Shown here piece after piece: positions 33,013-63,074 of a stretch of 64,000 nt of DNA (position 1 is the first letter of the stretch; every line of letters starts with the position of its first letter). This stretch comes from Bdellovibrionota bacterium (GTDB taxonomy: Bacteria; Bdellovibrionota_C; UBA2361; JBGSMV01). The notes beneath the pieces are model-generated. The model did no database searches. It saw nothing but the letters and a program-made list of their open reading frames with translations, and was not told the DNA's origin. Location of the stretch: NCBI GenBank assembly GCA_041739995.1, contig JBGSMV010000047.1:261682-325681 (forward strand), in the 5' to 3' direction. The position numbers and the translations under genes are program-made.

Positions 33013-33157
33013 GCTCTCATACTGGCGCACTCCTCCAGCTGGTTCAGGTCCAACCATTATCATTTATTGCAGCCTCAGATTAGCACGAAGGCACCTTCAG
33101 GCACCTACCTATTAATAGCGTTCAAACGGCGAGTGAAGAGCGGTCGAGATTTTAGCC

Positions 33158-33188
33158 AAAAAAAAGAGCGGGCCGAAGCCCGCTCTTT
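33158..33188 (-). terminator. Intrinsic terminator of pilA
   Basis: Minus strand AAAGAGCGGGC-TTCG-GCCCGCTC followed by T8, 22 nt after the pilA stop. Confidence 0.9.
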
Positions 33189-33210
33189 AAGAGAACTAGA
33201 GTTCTCTAGA

Positions 33211-33648
33211 TTATGGACAAGCTGCGCCACTTCGGCCAGTCAAGCCACCAGCTGCGCTGTCCCAAAGGTAACAGTCAGCGGTACCATCAACTGATCCATC
33301 AGGATGCGCGGAGCCACCAGTGAAAGATACTGGAGGACCAGCAACTGCCACCATGTCAAGCGTTACGCCAGCGGATGGGCTGAACGCTGGAAGTAGAGCT
33401 TCGCAAGTTCCTGCTCCACCGCCGCCTGCGCCGTCTTCAGTACAATCAATGTAGTTTTCGAAATCAGCAAAGTAGGCTTCTTCGCCAGTCGCTGCATTTC
33501 TTAGATCGCTTAGAGAGCGCGAATCGAATCCTCGAGCTCGGTACTCAGCGAACTGTGGAATAGCAATTGCAGCAAGAATACCGATAATAGCCACTACGAC
33601 GAGTAGCTCAATAAGAGTAAAACCTGCATCCTTCGTCATCTTCCTCAT
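33211..33648 (-). CDS. pilA: Type IVa major pilin
   Basis: Class III signal G|FTLIELLVVVAIIGILAAIAIPQF; GAGGAG RBS before ATG 33648; own sigma54 promoter and terminator. Confidence 0.93.
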   Translation of the reverse strand: MRKMTKDAGFTLIELLVVVAIIGILAAIAIPQFAEYRARGFDSRSLSDLRNAATGEEAYFADFENYIDCTEDGAGGGGAGTCEALLPAFSPSAGVTLDMVAVAGPPVSFTGGSAHPDGSVDGTADCYLWDSAAGGLTGRSGAACP

Positions 33649-33915
33649 TTTCTTTTTCTCCTCAACCATTTTAACGTTAAAATGAACCGCTGCAGGTTCT
33701 CTTGAGCCACCTCATCAAGGCCGCCAGTCTGAAGTTACGAGAGTTCTCATCACTTCCGGCCTTCTAGGGTTTGCCTGGGCTTCTTAGTTCCCTTGCTTCC
33801 CGTCGGGCCCCGAGTTCGTCATGCACGCTCCTAAGGAGGCACACCACAAACACGCTCTCTTGGGCCTAGTTTCTCGACAGGGAGAACCCAGGCCTGCAAC
33901 GTTCCCGTTCCACTG

Positions 33916-33931
33916 AGCAAGTCGGGTGCCA
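33916..33931 (-). promoter_or_regulatory. sigma54 -24/-12 promoter of pilA
   Basis: Minus strand TGGCACCCGACTTGCT matches TGGCAC-N5-TTGC. Confidence 0.88.
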
Positions 33932-33996
33932 AGCGAGAAAGGTTTAGATAATTTTAATCATTCGTAATTTCAGAACGTTGGAGCATGAAAAGGGGT

Positions 33997-34047
33997 GCCA
34001 TTTTGTGGCTACGGCTGCAAAAAATGTCACAAGTGACAAATTTTGCG
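33997..34047. promoter_or_regulatory. Putative enhancer (activator binding sites) for pilA
   Basis: GCCA-N5-TGGC at 33997, TGCA-N5-TGTC at 34016, GACA-N5-TGCG at 34035: 19-bp spacing. Confidence 0.6.
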
Positions 34048-34350
34048 CCTTGGCGGCCGATCTTCTTGATTGGCAGGGTGCTTTTCGTTTGCGGTAGTAG
34101 CCCCTTAGGGTCGGATTCTGCAAAGGGGGTCCATCCACCTGGTCTTGCAGGGCGCCTAGATAGGGAAAGCTGATTCCCCTCCGCTCCGTCTGGGGTCTCC
34201 GCGTACAGAAAAATTAAACAGAAGGTCAGAAGGACCTGAGAACCCAATTGATGGTTACGCGATGTTTTTAGTGGATGAGCGTGCATTCTGGTTAGGATTC
34301 TTTATCGCGGAGAGGGGGAGAGAGCGGAGCGTAGGAGCGCATCCTCCTAA

Positions 34351-36417
34351 TTAAGGAGCTTCAGAGTCAGCGTCATCATGAAGTCCGAACTTCTGCAGCC
34401 GATAGCGAAGTGAGCGAAAGTTTATACCCAATAGCTTGGCAGCCTTCTTCTTCACGCCGCCACTGCGCTCAAGCGCGCTCTCTATGTAACGGCGCTCTAG
34501 TGACTCAAGGATTCTTTCGAGGTCGACAGGAAATTCTACTGACTCATCAATAATAATCGTCGTTTCGGGATTGGACGACGAGCTAGTCTGAGAAGTGGTG
34601 GAGTCAGCTCTCAGTGCTTCGGGGAGATGCTCGGGAAGTACCACTGCCCCACCGAGAACAAACGCTCTCTCAAGTATGTTCTCCAGTTCTCGGACGTTTC
34701 CCGGATAGGTGTAGTTAACCAAAAGCTGCAGTGTCTGCGGCGGCAGTGTGGCAGGGGCTGAACCAATCAGCGATGCTCCCGGTTCTGAACCAACGCGTCT
34801 TTGCGACATAAGGCGCTTCATGATGGAACTCACAAGAAGCGGAATGTCTTCCTTGCGTTCCCTCAGTGCGGGGAGATTGATGCTTATAACGTTTAGGCGA
34901 TAGTAGAGATCTTCGCGGAAATTTCCATTTTCGATCTCTTTCTTCAAGTTTCTATTTGTTGCCGCGATGATGCGTACATCTACTGTGTAATCGCGTTCGC
35001 CTCCAACTGGTCGAATCGATTTCTCCTGGAGTGCGCGAAGCAGTTTCGCTTGCATAAGAGTGGGGAGCTCGCCAATTTCATCTAGAAAAAGCGTGCCGCC
35101 AGAAGCGCGTTGAAAGAGACCAGGATGATCGGCGTGCGCGCCAGTGAACGAGCCCTTTTTGTGTCCGAAGAATTCGCTCTCTAAAAGAGTTTCAGGAATA
35201 GCGCCGCAATTAACCGCAATGAAAGGTTGGTTGAAGCGCGAGCTTTCTTGATGCACGGCACGTGCGACAAGTTCTTTTCCGGTGCCTGATTCGCCATGAA
35301 CAAGAATCGTAGCATCCGACTTGGCGACACGCGTTATTAAACTGAACACCTTTTGCATTACCACGCTCTCGCCCACAAATTCGCCTAGCTTGCGAGGGCT
35401 TGGCGCCGAAGGCTCTGAAGTGGCTGAGAGTAGTCGAGCCATGCGGTCTTGAAGTTCAAGCTGTTCCTCGACGGAGCGAAGTTCGCTGATGTCTTGGAAC
35501 ATAACCACATAGCCACCTTGCTCCGGTAGCGGGCGGGAGGCGCAACGGATGTTTCTTTCTTCGCTCTCATCGTTGAAGAGCAATGAGAGTTCGCCTGAGT
35601 ATCCAGAATCTTCTCGCAAGACCGTCGAGTGGGTGGCTATGTTCTGCAATGCAGTGAGCAGATCTGCACCGCGTAGCGTGCGATCACTCACGTGGAATAG
35701 CTCGGACAGCGCCTTGTTCCAAGTGCGGATATGACCGCTCGGATCAACCACGCACATGCTTTCGGGCAGACTCTCTATGAGGTGTGCTTGCTGCTCGGAT
35801 ACTTGGTGTAGATCTTTCTGGGACTGCGCAACCTGAGCATCTCGCTTCGAGATTGTTTGCATGAGATAGCTAGTCGCTATCGCAACTAGTACCATAGCAG
35901 AGCATAATCCAGTGAGCTGAAGCGCAAGGCCGCTCGAAGGCGTTTCTACTCCTACGCTCCCATCAAGAGGAACAAGCCACGCAACTTTAAGAGCAATGGT
36001 AAGGCCCAGATAGCAGGCGCCACTGGCCGCCGCGGTCATCAGGGCCGTGAGGCGACTCCCAAGCACTGCCGCGACCATTACTACCGGAAGATAGAGAAAC
36101 AGAAAGGGACTTATGGCACCGCCGGTTCCATACACGATGCTAGTTACCAGCAGTACATCAATGGAAAGCTGAGTCACCACAAAGCGTGGTGAATAGGCGT
36201 ATCGCTTTACCCACCACCAACTTCCAAGGCTTGCTGCCAAAAAGCCTACCAGTGGCCATAACATTCGTTTCGCAAGCAGTACCGAGCTTCCGTCAAGCAG
36301 TGCAATCGTCGCAAGCGAAGCCACCAGCGAGAACCCAATCACCGCAAACCGAATGCCGAGCAGCCAGACTAGCTGCATGGTCGGGTTTATTGGTTTTGAA
36401 TCCGTTGCGAGTGACAT
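34351..36417 (-). CDS. PilS-PilR fusion: membrane sensor + PAS + sigma54 AAA+ activator + Fis HTH, without kinase or receiver
   Basis: PilS-like TMs (VYGTGG..SPFLFLY), PAS ending FQDISELR, then [53 protein letters not shown]. Confidence 0.85.
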
Positions 36418-36433: not shown

Positions 36434-37654
36434 TTAGCCCACCACGGCGCCCATCTTGAAGATTGGGAGATACATCGCGATGACGAGTCCTCCGACGATG
36501 GTTCCGAGAACTAAGATCATCAAGGGCTCGATCAGTTGCTTCATCGCACCTACAGCGTTATCGACTTCTTCTTCGTAGAAGTCGGCGATCTTTTGGAGCA
36601 TGGCATCCAGCGCCCCAGTTGATTCCCCCACTCCAATCATTTGTACCACCATGGCAGGAAACACTGCGGATTCTGCGAGTGGTTCGACCATCGATTTGCC
36701 TTCGGAGATCGCTACTCGACACCGTTGCACATCTCTTTCAACTACCTTATTGCCGGCTGTTTTGGCGCAAATATTTAGTGCGTCAAGAATCGGTACGCCC
36801 GAGCTAAGCATGGTGCCAAGCGTTCTGGTGAAGCGCGCCACAGACACTTTGCGAATGATGTCTCCGAAGATTGGGAGCTTAAGCATCACCGGATGCAGAA
36901 CTTCCTTTCCGCGCGGGGTGCCAGCGAAACGAACGAAAGAGAAGAAGGCGGCGAACAATGAACCGAAGATTAAGAAAATATTGTCCACCATGAAGTTGGA
37001 CATGTTGATAACTATTTGAGTGGGAAGCGGAAGAGCTGCGCCGAAATCACTGAAGAGCTCAGCAAAGGTGGGAATAACGAAGATCAAAAGCACGCAAGTT
37101 ACGAGGAATGCAGCTGAGATAACAACTGCCGGATAAATCATGGCAGTCTTGATTTCGCGCTTGAGTTTCATGGCCTTTTCTTGGTGGATCGCCAAGCGCT
37201 CAAGAATTACATCAAGAATACCGCCGTTCTCTCCGGCGTTAACCATGTTCACATAGAGATCGTCGAAGGCTTTGGGAAATAAAGCCATACCATCGGAGAG
37301 GGTTCCTCCGGTTTCGACAGACTCCTTAATGCCAAGGAGAACCTTTCTGAAGGCGGGGTTCTCGTGCTGACGAGCAAGAATATCGAAGGCCTGTACGAGC
37401 GGAAGTCCCGCATCGATCATTGTGGCGAACTGTCTGGTAAACAGAACTACATCCCGCCCTTTTACCTTTGGACCAAGACCTGGAATCTTGATCTCCATTT
37501 CGAGACCCTTGCCCTTCTCGCGAATGGCCTTGGCGTTCGGGGTGATGCGCTGCCCCTTCAGCATATTGAAGACAGCTTGAACGTCGCGGGCATCTACCTC
37601 TCCCGAGACCTTTTTTCCTTTGCTATTGGTGCCCTCCCAAACAAAAACCGCCAT
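36434..37654 (-). CDS. pilC: Type IV pilus platform protein PilC
   Basis: [47 protein letters not shown]. Confidence 0.95.
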
Positions 37655-37739: not shown

Positions 37740-39431
37740 CTAGTCAGCTGCAGTGACGCGAAGAACTTCCTCCACCGTTGTTACGCCTTCTCGGAGTCTG
37801 AGCAGTCCTGAGGCTCTTAAAGTCAGCATGCCTAGTCGAATGGCTTCTCGTTTGATCTCTGTGGTTGAGGCACCATTGAGCACGAAGTCTTTTAGCTCCT
37901 CGCGCATTGGCATTACTTCATAGAGGGCAATACGACCCTTATAGCCAGTGTTGGCGCAGCGATTGCAGCCTTTACCTTGTTTGAGTTTGACGTGCCGCGC
38001 TTCCTCGGCGGCAATGCCGATGTTGACAAGGATTTCAGGGTTTACCTGAACTTCCTGCGCGCATTCAGGACATACGCGACGAGCAAGTCGTTGCGCTAAA
38101 ATAAGGTTGATGGAAGAGGCTACCAGGAAAGGCTCGACCCCCATGTTGAGCAAGCGGTTGATGGTGGAGGGTGCGTCGTTGGTGTGCAGCGTGGAGAGCA
38201 CAAGATGACCCGTAAGCGAGGCTTTGATGGCGATTTCTGCCGTTTCGTAATCTCGAACCTCACCAACCATGATGACGTCAGGATCTTGGCGGAGAAACGC
38301 TCTTAAAGCCGCGGCAAAATTGAATCCAATATCATCATGCATCTGGGCTTGGTTGATGCCGCCCAGGTTGTACTCAACAGGATCTTCAGCGGTGCTGATG
38401 TTGGTGGTGGTCTTATTGAGTTCGGCAAGCGCAGAGTAGAGCGTGGTTGTTTTCCCCGATCCAGTCGGTCCGGTTACGAGTACCATTCCATGTGGCTTGG
38501 AGATTGCTTCTTGAAAGTGAGTAATCTGACTTGGCTCGAAGCCAAGCTTAGTCATATCGAGCTGGAGATTGGACTTGTCGAGCAGACGCATTACCACTTT
38601 TTCCCCAAACAAAGTGGGGAGAACGTTGACGCGGTAGTCCATTTCGCGGTTTTGGCCGAGCTTAAGCTTGATACGACCGTCTTGCGGCAATCTACGCTCC
38701 GCAATGTCTAGATCCGCCATGATCTTGATACGAGAGGTGATGGCGTTCTTAAGCTTGGACGGCGGCTTCATGATTTCATAGAGCACACCGTCAATACGAA
38801 AGCGCACTCGGAAGGCACGCTCATATGGCTCTATGTGGATGTCTGATGCATTCTTTTTTATCGCGTCAGTGAGAATCGCATTCACCAGTTTCACCACAGG
38901 GGCGTCTTCGGTGGCGCGCTCCAGCTCGCCGACATCGATGGAGTCGCTGGTATCTACTACCTCAACATCATCCTCAACTTCGTTGATAATGTTTTCGTAA
39001 GAAACATGTGCTTCATAGGCGCGATCTTGCGCGGCCTTTACGTCACGCTCAGAGGCGATCACTACTTGAATATCAAGTCCCGTGATAAACTTAATGTCGT
39101 TGAGGGCCACGATATTGGTGGGATCGGCCATGGCGATGGTGAGTGCGCGGTCCTTTTGGACGACCGGCACAAGGTTATGCTTGGTCGCCAAGTTTTGCGG
39201 AACCATTTGCAGCACGCTTGGATCGAACTCCACAGAGTTGAGCTCTATGATCGGTACGCCGTATTGTTGACTGATGGTGGTAAGTAGATCTTCTTCGGAT
39301 AGGAAGCCAAGCTGCACAAGATGCCCACCGAGGAACCCCCCGTTGGTCTTTTGGAGCTCAGTGGCATGCTGATATTGCTCAGACGTTATGAGACCGGTCC
39401 GAACAAGAAGTTCTCCTACGCGGGACGACAT
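37740..39431 (-). CDS. pilB: Type IV pilus assembly ATPase PilB
   Basis: MshEN-like N-terminus (RVGELL...FLGGHLV), ASDIHIEP, GPTGSGKT, AEDPVE, LRQDPD, TGHLVLSTLHTN, two CxxC. Confidence 0.95.
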   Translation of the reverse strand: MSSRVGELLVRTGLITSEQYQHATELQKTNGGFLGGHLVQLGFLSEEDLLTTISQQYGVPIIELNSVEFDPSVLQMVPQNLATKHNLVPVVQKDRALTIAMADPTNIVALNDIKFITGLDIQVVIASERDVKAAQDRAYEAHVSYENIINEVEDDVEVVDTSDSIDVGELERATEDAPVVKLVNAILTDAIKKNASDIHIEPYERAFRVRFRIDGVLYEIMKPPSKLKNAITSRIKIMADLDIAERRLPQDGRIKLKLGQNREMDYRVNVLPTLFGEKVVMRLLDKSNLQLDMTKLGFEPSQITHFQEAISKPHGMVLVTGPTGSGKTTTLYSALAELNKTTTNISTAEDPVEYNLGGINQAQMHDDIGFNFAAALRAFLRQDPDVIMVGEVRDYETAEIAIKASLTGHLVLSTLHTNDAPSTINRLLNMGVEPFLVASSINLILAQRLARRVCPECAQEVQVNPEILVNIGIAAEEARHVKLKQGKGCNRCANTGYKGRIALYEVMPMREELKDFVLNGASTTEIKREAIRLGMLTLRASGLLRLREGVTTVEEVLRVTAAD

Positions 39432-61570: not shown

Positions 61571-62956
61571 TCACTCAGCGGAGGGAACCGAAGCCTGATT
61601 TGTTGTATCACATGAAGGCCGCTCAAGCGCATAATCACGCACCTTGTTCAGCAAGGTCTTATAGCTCACGCCTAGAATTTCCGACGCTTTGGATTTGTTC
61701 CACCCAGTTTTGCCCAGAGTTCTGGTAATTAGTTCTATCTCGGCTTTGCGGGCGGCACGTTGGGCGACTTCAGTGAGCGAAAGGGTCGCGTCACCGAGCG
61801 CCTGTAAATCCAAGGGCGCAGGCCCTAAGCCAAGGTGCTCAGGTCGAATTTCGCCTTCGGAGAGAATCGTCGCACGCTCGATGATGTTTTCAAGTTCCCG
61901 GGCATTTCCTGGCCAAGAATGAGACTTAACTACTGCCAAGGCGCCCTCGGAGAGAGTGAAGTGCCGGTTAGTGCTGACAGAGAAGTAATCAACAAACGAA
62001 TTCGCGAGAAGTTCAATGTCTTCCTTGCGTTCCTTGAGTGGTGGAAGGGTGAGAGTGATGACCGCTAAGCGATAGTAGAAGTCTTCTCTCAGCTCGCCTT
62101 GAGCAAGTGCTTGCTCAATATCTTTGTTAGTTGCTGCGATAATTCTCGGATTTACGGCAATCGACTTGTTGCCACCCACTCGCTTGATTTCACGCTCTTG
62201 TAAAGCTCGAAGAAGCTTTACTTGAAGGTTCAAAGGCATGTCCCCAACTTCATCGAGAAATATGGTGCCCTCGGATGCGTACTCAAAAAGTCCCTGTCGC
62301 GCCTGGGTCGCGCCGGTAAACGCACCAGCTTCGTGACCGAAGAACTCGCTTTCTAGTAGGCTCTCGGGCATCGCAGCGCAGTTTATGGCGACAAATGGCT
62401 TGTCCGCGCGCGGAGAGTGCTCATGAACGAATCGAGCAAGCAACTCTTTCCCAGTACCGGACTCGCCAAGAATGAGGGCGGTCGAGTCAACGCACGCCAC
62501 TTTGCGTGCTTGATTCAAGACGGCGTGTACTTTGGGGCTTTGCGAGAGGAAGCGACGAGGACGTCGCATACCAGCGCCCTCGCGATCTATAATTCTATGG
62601 TGTTCGATAACTTGGCGTAGCAGGGAGCAGAGGTTCTCAGGCTCAAATGGCTTGGTGATAAAGTCAGTGGCACCATATTTCATCGCCTCAACTGCGATTT
62701 CGATTGACCCATATGCGGTCATGAGAACGAAAGGTACTTTTGTGTCAAGTGCGCGTAGCTCTTTGAGTACCTCGATGCCGCTTTGTCCGGGCAGTCGAAA
62801 GTCTGAAAGAACGCAGTCGAAGTGGCGTGATTGTAAATAGGCGTGAGCGACCTCACCTGTCGGAGCTGTTTCAACATGGAATCCTTCCGTTTCCAGGACG
62901 GATTTAAGAACGTCACGAAGTGAAGAGATATCCTCGATGATAAGAATCTTCTGCAT
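61571..62956 (-). CDS. sigma54-dependent response regulator (NtrC/AtoC family)
   Basis: Receiver (IIED, LSDFRLP, MTAY, ITKPF), [28 protein letters not shown], Fis HTH; start reset to 62956. Confidence 0.93.
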   Translation of the reverse strand: MQKILIIEDISSLRDVLKSVLETEGFHVETAPTGEVAHAYLQSRHFDCVLSDFRLPGQSGIEVLKELRALDTKVPFVLMTAYGSIEIAVEAMKYGATDFITKPFEPENLCSLLRQVIEHHRIIDREGAGMRRPRRFLSQSPKVHAVLNQARKVACVDSTALILGESGTGKELLARFVHEHSPRADKPFVAINCAAMPESLLESEFFGHEAGAFTGATQARQGLFEYASEGTIFLDEVGDMPLNLQVKLLRALQEREIKRVGGNKSIAVNPRIIAATNKDIEQALAQGELREDFYYRLAVITLTLPPLKERKEDIELLANSFVDYFSVSTNRHFTLSEGALAVVKSHSWPGNARELENIIERATILSEGEIRPEHLGLGPAPLDLQALGDATLSLTEVAQRAARKAEIELITRTLGKTGWNKSKASEILGVSYKTLLNKVRDYALERPSCDTTNQASVPSAE

Positions 62957-63074
62957 GACCCGGAACGACTCCAAACTACAAGTAGACCCAGAGGCATCGG
63001 CTCGTAAGCCAATATTAGAAGGACTAAGAAGTCTATCGGAGTGTGCCTAAGGCTGCTTTATGAGCCGCGCCGAA

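Follow-up and report, generated by a model that had tools for sequence, protein, structure and literature searches.

PilS and PilR are known as separate proteins in Pseudomonas aeruginosa, Myxococcus and Geobacter, and the pair is a textbook case of a structural protein, the pilin, that regulates its own gene via a membrane kinase. Bacterial enhancer-binding proteins (bEBPs) bind upstream repeats as dimers through a helix-turn-helix (HTH) domain, and their AAA+ ring uses ATP to open the sigma-54 promoter complex; in the usual description, they are soluble ATPases that form rings and contact the promoter through looping of the DNA. According to excerpts of two reports on P. aeruginosa (PMC6058289, PMC13170266), PilS contacts PilA via six transmembrane (TM) segments, PilR becomes hyperactive when PilA is lost, and when PilA is in excess, PilS dephosphorylates PilR and so switches it off. 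As described in part of another report (PMC4237445), pilS and pilR of Bdellovibrio bacteriovorus are separate genes after pilC. In the present study, we analysed a 64,000-nt stretch of DNA (hereafter the window; contig JBGSMV010000047.1, positions 261,682 to 325,681) from a metagenome-assembled genome (MAG) of 81 contigs assigned to Bdellovibrionota (GCA_041739995.1). In this window, one gene (P0001; 34351..36417, minus strand) encodes a fusion of a PilS-type sensor, with membrane and PAS domains, and a sigma-54 activator of the PilR type, as judged from the open reading frame (ORF), Pfam and relatives. By its sequence, the PilS-PilR system is here reduced to one membrane protein.

Read on the minus strand, the ORF of the fused regulator extends from 36417 to 34351; it specifies 688 aa and has no internal stop. 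The gene for the platform protein PilC (36434..37654, minus strand; Pfam T2SSF, 231.8 bits) ends 16 nt upstream of the regulator start, and the pilin gene follows downstream on the same strand after a spacer of 681 nt. An initial annotation, made from the DNA letters alone, had placed an intact 688-aa ORF in the pilS-pilR slot between pilC and pilA, and this was confirmed, on the minus strand, with neighbours identified by Pfam. The motifs that it quoted were all present (residues 307-329, residues 418-427 and FRSLRYRL at 667-674).

The domain architecture was examined by a Pfam scan and by an AlphaFold2 (AF2) model built from a 78-row alignment. Pfam matched 6TM_PilS at residues 17-191 with 28.5 bits, which barely passes the cut-off of 27, whereas relatives scored far higher (62.2, 56.9, 54.7 and 40.6 bits). 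Together with AF2 and hydropathy, this match defined a six-helix TM domain at residues ~12-191 (35845..36384, minus strand), which contains the conserved motif SPFLFLYLP; S103 and P104 were invariant in 78/78 aligned sequences. It is followed by a PAS domain at residues 210-317 (35467..35790, minus strand; Pfam PAS_7, PAS_4 and PAS, with AF2 strands at 220-309) and by a post-PAS helix at residues 311-332 (35422..35487, minus strand), an AF2 helix that is the counterpart of the PilS helix leading into the H-box. The junction linker, residues 333-347 (35377..35421, minus strand), sits where the DHp/H-box, HATPase_c and receiver domains would be, and it matches the Ser/Pro linker that had been placed at about 35380-35425. 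The sigma-54 interaction AAA+ domain with its lid spans residues 348-613 (34579..35376, minus strand; Sigma54_activat at 348-513, 245.5 bits; AAA_lid_14 at 519-613, 63.8 bits) and carries the Walker A motif GESGTGKE, a Walker B motif and the L1 loop GSFTGA, all in columns that were invariant or nearly so across 78 relatives. A Fis-type HTH, including the recognition stretch, closes the protein (residues 637-677; 34387..34509, minus strand; HTH_8, 58.1 bits). As the initial annotation had claimed, phosphotransfer domains were absent: HisKA, HATPase_c and Response_reg gave no Pfam match in the regulator, even at E values up to 0.1. Its central claim, a single chain of PilS-like TM segments and PAS followed by a PilR-type AAA+/HTH, was supported by Pfam, AF2, the alignments and the tree described below. 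NCBIfam gave sub-threshold matches only, all to soluble bEBPs, the best being PrdR (residues 197-677, 381.8 vs 795 bits). The protein thus combines an AAA+ domain bearing Walker A, Walker B and L1-loop motifs with a Fis-type HTH, and rpoN (on contig C32) and a -24/-12 promoter were found in the genome. By its domains, the regulator is a bEBP, and activation of the promoter is predicted; by the same evidence, it stands outside the kinase family (no H-box, no HATPase_c) and is not a response regulator (no receiver).

The best matches of the N-terminal half (N-half) outside the fused family were the kinase-type PilS proteins P0029 and P0030. BLASTP aligned residues 83-327 with PilS P0029 (E = 2e-19), and the alignment stopped at LELQDRMA, opposite LRLKDRMA of PilS, approximately 10 residues ahead of the AHEIRNPL H-box. 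After LRLKDRMA, PilS continues with AVGELSAGIAHEIRNPL, whereas the fused protein passes through a short linker into FVGES, the usual start of the bEBP central domain. The proposal that the N-half halts just short of the H-box position was therefore borne out by the divergence from P0029. So was its grouping with PilS, since its closest relatives outside the fused family are PilS kinases whose genes come right after pilC; for relatives of P0029, the immediately preceding genes are pilB-pilT-pilC, which puts them in the slot that the fused gene holds. For the PilS kinases most similar to the N-half (the P0029 group, at L072, L133 and other metagenome loci related to them), no adjoining pilR was seen; at L133, a bEBP-like match lay ~4.7 kb away on the opposite strand.

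For the C-terminal half (C-half), we constructed a tree from the AAA+ to HTH regions of 48 rows by an IQ-TREE quick search with LG+G4. The PilR references were four loci (L142, L146, L147 and L151) from two lineages, defined by gene context: each lies directly after a kinase with the order 6TM_PilS-PAS-HisKA-HATPase_c, and one is then followed by two pilin genes. Branch support was expressed by the Shimodaira-Hasegawa-like approximate likelihood ratio test (SH-aLRT). The 36 fused sequences, including three from other phylum labels, fell on one side of a branch (SH-aLRT 92), and this group was sister to the four context-defined PilRs (SH-aLRT 91), apart from the eight other bEBPs of the genome, which comprise seven of the receiver type and one short protein. 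The corresponding branches in a smaller C-half tree received 100 and 88. The HTH motif [FYM]RS[FL]R[YH] was found in the fused protein and in 4/4 context-defined PilRs, and in 0/8 other bEBPs of the same genome; the HTH stretch of the fused protein resembled the PilR stretches MSFRSFRYYAKKY and MNYRSFRHYAKKY and those of none of the eight paralogues. None of the NCBIfam PilR models scored on the regulator. The initial annotation had also read GSFTGA as a PilR hallmark, which did not hold, as context-defined PilRs and fused relatives alike carry GAFTGA or GSFTGA. Collectively, there is moderate evidence that the C-half is sister to PilR and that the AAA+/HTH part derived from it. Kinase-type PilS was absent from this genome, in which the only other 6TM_PilS match was a RegB-like kinase considered below. 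A second sigma-54 activator is encoded within the window (61571..62974, minus strand; L008 1021..2424), a receiver-AAA+-HTH protein of 467 aa.

Given these relationships, the simplest history would be a single deletion by which the H-box/DHp, HATPase_c and receiver domains were lost and pilS became continuous with pilR, and this fusion event would have happened once, before the family spread. We examined that spread at several levels. In a same-order set of 61 genomes including the source, near-full-length copies, defined by a match from residue 83 or earlier to residue 677 or later, were found in 29/61 genomes at 44-61% identity; four of those 29 rows hold one stop in the matched stretch, and the ORF read at the locus in G041 is intact, at 676 aa. 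The adjacency of pilC and the regulator is kept in 11/12 order-level loci that include upstream DNA. A profile of 12 N-halves (A1) was run against all 124 genomes of the GTDB phylum, with rows counted by hand. The N-half lay inside an open frame of at least 600 aa in 53/124 genomes, and 12 further genomes held it in shorter frames (contig ends, split frames in G021 and G042, and forms of ~570-590 aa); with this profile, it was absent from 35/36 genomes of family f8. All 20 fetched same-class loci contained an ORF of 659-737 aa with GAFTGA or GSFTGA and without an H-box. The PilR-like HTH motif was present in 19/20, and the ORF lay directly after pilC in 19/20, the upstream gene at L171 having failed the pilC pattern. 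Pfam analysis of six same-class relatives gave Sigma54_activat, HTH_8 and a PAS-family match in 6/6 and phosphotransfer domains in 0/6.

The family also extends beyond this set. The best 120 C-half database matches (60-77% identity) all belonged to this clade, most of them full-length fused proteins and ~11 shorter or partial; for roughly one fifth, the precomputed Pfam list did not include 6TM_PilS, and a receiver domain occurred in 0 of these 120. The matching public records are MAGs labelled Bdellovibrionota, Bdellovibrionales, Oligoflexia or Deltaproteobacteria. Three genomes reached via Thermodesulfobacteriota or 'Deltaproteobacteria' labels (G124, G126 and G127) show the order pilB-pilT-pilC-fusion, with fused ORFs of 676-678 aa that score 39.7-56.9 bits on 6TM_PilS. 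Behind the fusion, G124 and G127 have a sigma-54 promoter and a pilin gene; at G126, the regulator is the last gene of the locus. In G125, with a Binatia label, the N-half match was cut by the contig end, and the ESM Atlas held a second cluster of the same architecture whose commonest known phylum was Binatota, which we regard as a lead only. A profile search of protein representatives with the N-half was dominated by multi-PAS proteins and gave no usable family count; 21 of its best 150 were single-stretch matches in proteins of 632-717 aa. In a PAS-less subtype of 555-581 aa (P0040, P0028, P0047 and others), the EEQLxxQxRMARLL helix and the AAA+ domain come straight after the six-helix domain. 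Such a PAS-less form was also observed in G009 (L186 2581..4248), with a TM part too diverged for Pfam or the A1 profile.

These data also bear on whether the fusion is an artefact of wrong assembly, of sequencing errors or of the decay of pilS-pilR in one genome. The source is a MAG of 81 contigs, and a few relatives carry broken copies: at G042:C1:799794-801720 the regulator is in pieces with in-frame TGA stops, and at G021:C25:13479-15448 it is split over two frames near residue 276-296, in both cases through decay or assembly errors. Against this, the frame in the window is intact with all ATPase and HTH motifs, and the same junction recurs in dozens of genomes at 44-61% identity, so that an artefact has a negligible probability. 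Four DNA runs of one study contain the stretch and may include the source sample; contigs of two of them, X1 (34895-35517) and X2 (35307-35518), cross the junction with 0 differences, which argues weakly in the same direction. Two of the conditions under which the initial annotation would have failed, a misassembled junction and a one-off deletion, were thus excluded, the latter by relatives at the order, class and phylum levels and under other labels that carry the fusion and not an intact pilS plus pilR.

The gene that the regulator would control lies immediately downstream. The major type IVa pilin gene pilA (33211..33669, minus strand; Pfam N_methyl) encodes the cleavage motif G|FTLIELL, with M8 or M11 as the likely start. 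Mature pilin residues 1-32 (F17-F48 of the ORF) were invariant at all but one position in 6/6 relatives. An intrinsic terminator follows pilA (33163..33188, minus strand; an 11-bp stem, 7 of its pairs being G-C, followed by a T tract), and weak Rfam matches at 33140-33250 represented this hairpin only. Upstream of pilA, we found a near-consensus sigma-54 (-24/-12) promoter, TGGCACCCGACTTGCT (33916..33931, minus strand). The loose sigma-54 pattern was not enriched in the window (9 matches vs 10.6 expected). At 22 loci, of which 16 are distinct, the form TGGCAYC[C/A]GANTTGCT again lies downstream of the fused gene, and in the 20 loci with a following pilin the promoter lies 118-291 nt ahead of the pilin cleavage motif. 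The pilA leader (33670..33915, minus strand) is unusually long, at ~250 nt against roughly 80-210 nt in relatives, and it matched no Rfam family.

A perfect palindrome, TGTCACTTGTGACA (34025..34038, minus strand), lies ~100 bp upstream of the sigma-54 promoter and is a candidate enhancer, or upstream activating sequence. We counted hexamers in the 180 nt upstream of the promoters in 16 distinct regions, with 500 mononucleotide shuffles as the control. TGTCAC/GTGACA was the commonest hexamer, found in 14/16 regions (shuffles: mean 1.3, maximum 6) at positions -44 to -147, mostly -90 to -130. At one locus with the canonical pilS-pilR-pilA order (L151), TGACA and GTGACA stand ~100 bp before a sigma-54-like promoter, as a single case. 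We infer from these repeats that the regulator HTH may bind TGTCAC. An ORF of 110 aa (33954..34286, minus strand) overlaps the candidate enhancer just upstream of the sigma-54 promoter; it matched no family and is probably not a gene. Elsewhere in the genome, at G000:C6:57672-57687 (L182 3173..3188, minus strand), the CCGAC spacer of this lineage's pilA promoters was also observed in a sigma-54 promoter, TGGCATCCGACTTGCT, 65 nt upstream of a 493-aa ORF; TGTCAC repeats were not found upstream of it. We take this ORF to be the flagellar cap protein (FliD) from its N-terminal resemblance. The TGGCATCCGACTTGCT promoter was not assigned as a further target of the regulator, nor was a second genomic copy of TGTCACTTGTGACA, which sits inside a peptidase-like ORF.

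The AF2 model had a mean pLDDT (predicted local distance difference test) of 87.1 and a pTM (predicted template modelling score) of 0.54. Membrane helices were predicted at residues 12-40, 44-72, 77-97, 104-119, 122-144 and 161-216 with pLDDT of about 85-97, the last of which extends into the cytoplasm. The even number of helices places both termini on the same side, which must be the cytoplasm for the ATPase and HTH. After TM6, the model contains the PAS fold (220-309), the helix 311-332, a low-confidence segment (333-351) and then the AAA+ and HTH domains; pLDDT fell below 50 at linker residues 335-341. Matches in the PDB (ZraR, NifA, FleQ, NtrC1 and PspF) were confined to residues from 316 onward, and no PDB chain covered the N-half. 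The EEQLxxQ(E/D)RMARLL helix motif is the best-conserved part of the N-half after SPFLFLYLP. Its spacing from RMARLL to FVGES was 16 residues in 44/58 scorable sequences of the 78 (range 14-19), with a variable linker sequence.

From these results, we propose that the regulator would be an inner-membrane protein that is kept dimeric by the post-PAS helix, with its HTH on the TGTCAC repeats. A full membrane pilin pool would be sensed by the six-helix bundle and would block AAA+ assembly, so that plenty of pilin means off, and pilin depletion would leave the AAA+ domains free to assemble into a ring that, without leaving its membrane tether, remodels the sigma-54 holoenzyme at the pilA promoter. 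The signal would travel from TM6 through PAS to the dimeric helix and would there decide the assembly of the tethered AAA+ domains, a direct coupling of sensor and activator in place of a kinase/phosphatase switch. Because the last link is a flexible linker, control by assembly or proximity is favoured over a rigid push-pull relay. The initial annotation had suggested that the level of pilin may be passed on by a conformational relay and that the pilA locus may be kept at the membrane. We consider it very probable that the architecture, the origin and pilA as the target, taken jointly, are as described here. Pilin sensing with action at the membrane, which is modelled on the P. aeruginosa system, we hold to be possible at somewhat short of an even chance. 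For the statement as a whole, a membrane-integrated one-component sigma-54 activator of the pilin gene that arose from a pilS-pilR pair and senses pilin, we lean towards acceptance.

The nature of the signal is where this proposal meets its first alternative, namely that the same architecture and target respond to something else, such as membrane energisation, redox, lipid state or a PAS ligand, and that pilA is tuned to the environment. The RegB-like histidine kinase of this genome (460 aa; 6TM_PilS, 29.6 bits; G000:C35:28609-30596, L001 1153..3140) is followed by a RegA/ActR-like response regulator of 202 aa and shares equivalents of R23, D87, G99 and Y109 with PilS and the fused family. The R23 and D87 equivalents were found in it in 12/12 alignment rows, and the use of R23, D87 and Q167 as a pilin-sensing signature was dropped for that reason. 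Other kinases with a similar TM motif, met in a contig scan beside ABC permeases (L055-L058), were not useful. The 6TM_PilS fold, R23 and D87 are thus common to a redox-type kinase, most members of the family have a PAS domain, and the case for pilin binding is one of analogy, all of which would suit another signal. However, the gene keeps its place beside pilA and pilC both within the phylum and outside it, the kinases most closely related to it are PilS proteins that occupy that slot, and the N-terminus of the pilin is nearly invariant among relatives. Moreover, the subtype that lost PAS yet kept the TM domain and the helix indicates that PAS is not an indispensable sensor. We therefore consider a different signal unlikely.

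The linker raises another possibility, in which the membrane domain keeps the activator as an inactive precursor until regulated proteolysis, at or close to the linker, frees a soluble AAA+/HTH piece to switch on pilA in the cytoplasm. The linker has many Ser and Pro residues, is exposed and received low confidence in the model, cleavage-dependent activation is described for the membrane regulator CadC in part of one report (PMC11484849), and the bEBP RedR2 is kept inactive by membrane sequestration according to excerpts of another (PMC10084136). Yet no protease gene is conserved in the locus, and the linker is conserved in length and not in sequence, which argues against a specific cleavage site. 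Irreversible release would also poorly suit a stock-keeping loop that needs fast shut-off, and such a mechanism appears decidedly unlikely. It is less probable still that the PilS-type domain is an anchor only, placing pilA transcription at the membrane or pole while the activator is constitutive or controlled elsewhere. The title of Ethier and Boyd 2000 links the PilS TM domain to polar targeting, and membrane-bound regulators give membrane-localised expression of a Vibrio type III secretion system, as stated in part of PMC9977878. The conserved polar intramembrane residues and SPFLFLYLP nevertheless exceed the needs of a passive anchor, and the N-terminal domains of most bEBPs control assembly, according to the available text of a review (PMC7175178).

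Several observations weigh against control of pilA by pilin sensing through a fused PilS-PilR protein. R23 and D87 appear to mark the fold and not pilin recognition. The sister grouping with PilR was obtained with four references from two lineages, at SH-aLRT 88-91 in quick searches. G005 (L184, G005:C56:5500-12000) has three tandem pilin genes directly after pilC and no fused regulator, with a promoter of the same sigma-54 type, TGGCATCCGATTTGCT, between the first and second pilin genes, so that another activator can evidently serve such a promoter. The gene has been lost or broken in some lineages, and all carriers are uncultured MAGs. At the pTM of 0.54, the relative arrangement of the domains is not settled by the model. 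A rigid conformational relay is doubtful, since the link that would carry the signal to the AAA+ domain is variable and of low confidence, and with a linker predicted to be flexible, control via the oligomeric state is only one option. Finally, an AAA+ ring of this kind would carry 36 TM helices and would have to reach looped DNA at the membrane.

In a literature search of full texts, supplements left out, neither a PilS-PilR fusion nor a sigma-54 activator integrated in the membrane was found described. This agreed with the earlier remark that no described example was known, which stands for the literature and not for the databases: there the family is already abundant under generic names, as 'sigma 54-interacting transcriptional regulator', 'PAS domain-containing protein' or, misleadingly, 'response regulator PilR'. 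The gap lies in recognition, not in data, for a large family that is annotated only generically or misleadingly. The conserved wiring from sensor to sigma-54 ATPase would show that phosphotransfer is dispensable for the circuit, and with the fused protein, the question of how pilin occupancy of the PilS helix bundle is converted to output could be put to a less complex system. The ring here would need membrane-anchored subunits, and the promoter would need to come to the membrane. We advance only tentatively, as the less probable outcome, the broader suggestion of a widespread class of membrane-integrated bEBPs, in which the ring would assemble on the inner membrane face and open the pilA promoter there, and the PilS-type bundle would read the pilin pool directly and gate ring assembly without phosphorylation. 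One protein would then suffice to control the pilin stock, and pilA would be transcribed in physical connection with the place of pilin insertion.

Compared with the PilS-PilR system, the N-half of the fused regulator resembles PilS in its six-TM domain, its PAS domain and the helix toward the H-box, and the C-half resembles PilR in its sigma-54 AAA+ domain and Fis-type HTH with the FRSxRY stretch. The position of the gene after pilC (with pilB, for the extension ATPase, further upstream at 37740..39431, minus strand; Pfam T2SSE, 487.6 bits, plus MshEN) and before a sigma-54-dependent pilA is also that of PilS-PilR, as its action on the promoter would be. It differs in being a single chain in which the activator itself is membrane-integrated, and since the H-box/DHp, HATPase_c and receiver are missing, phosphotransfer and a kinase/phosphatase switch are impossible. 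Like the one-component bEBPs PrdR, TyrR, NifA and DmpR, with their PAS, GAF or V4R domains, the fused regulator has its sensor in the same chain as the AAA+/HTH part and no receiver; unlike them, it is not soluble, as a six-helix membrane domain precedes PAS. As in receiver-AAA+ activators of the NtrC1/DctD type, with their coiled-coil linker, a dimerising helix immediately before the AAA+ domain could keep that domain in a dimer unable to assemble until a signal arrives; in the fused regulator, the helix follows PAS and not a receiver, and between it and the AAA+ domain lie ~16 residues that were poorly predicted. The word 'transmembrane' does not occur in the available text of the review of bEBPs from 2020 (PMC7175178).

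Membrane-fixed regulators of other kinds provide a further comparison. As described in parts of two reports (PMC6320335, PMC7888679), ToxR, CadC and TcpP likewise hold a sensor, a membrane span and a DNA-binding effector in one protein, so that the DNA must come to the membrane. They have a single TM helix, a periplasmic sensor and a winged-helix domain, and they act at sigma-70 promoters without ATP, whereas the fused regulator has six TM helices with short loops, no periplasmic domain, a Fis-type HTH, and predicted AAA+ oligomerisation and sigma-54 dependence. It therefore does not belong to the ToxR/CadC type, and the likeness is that of a DNA-binding protein fixed in the membrane. According to excerpts of two reports (PMC10084136, PMC6003685), the activity of a sigma-54 activator is also tied to the membrane in RedR2-BtdS and PspF-PspA. 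The bEBPs of those systems are soluble and are sequestered or inhibited by another protein, whereas the membrane domain of the fused regulator is covalently joined to the activator itself.

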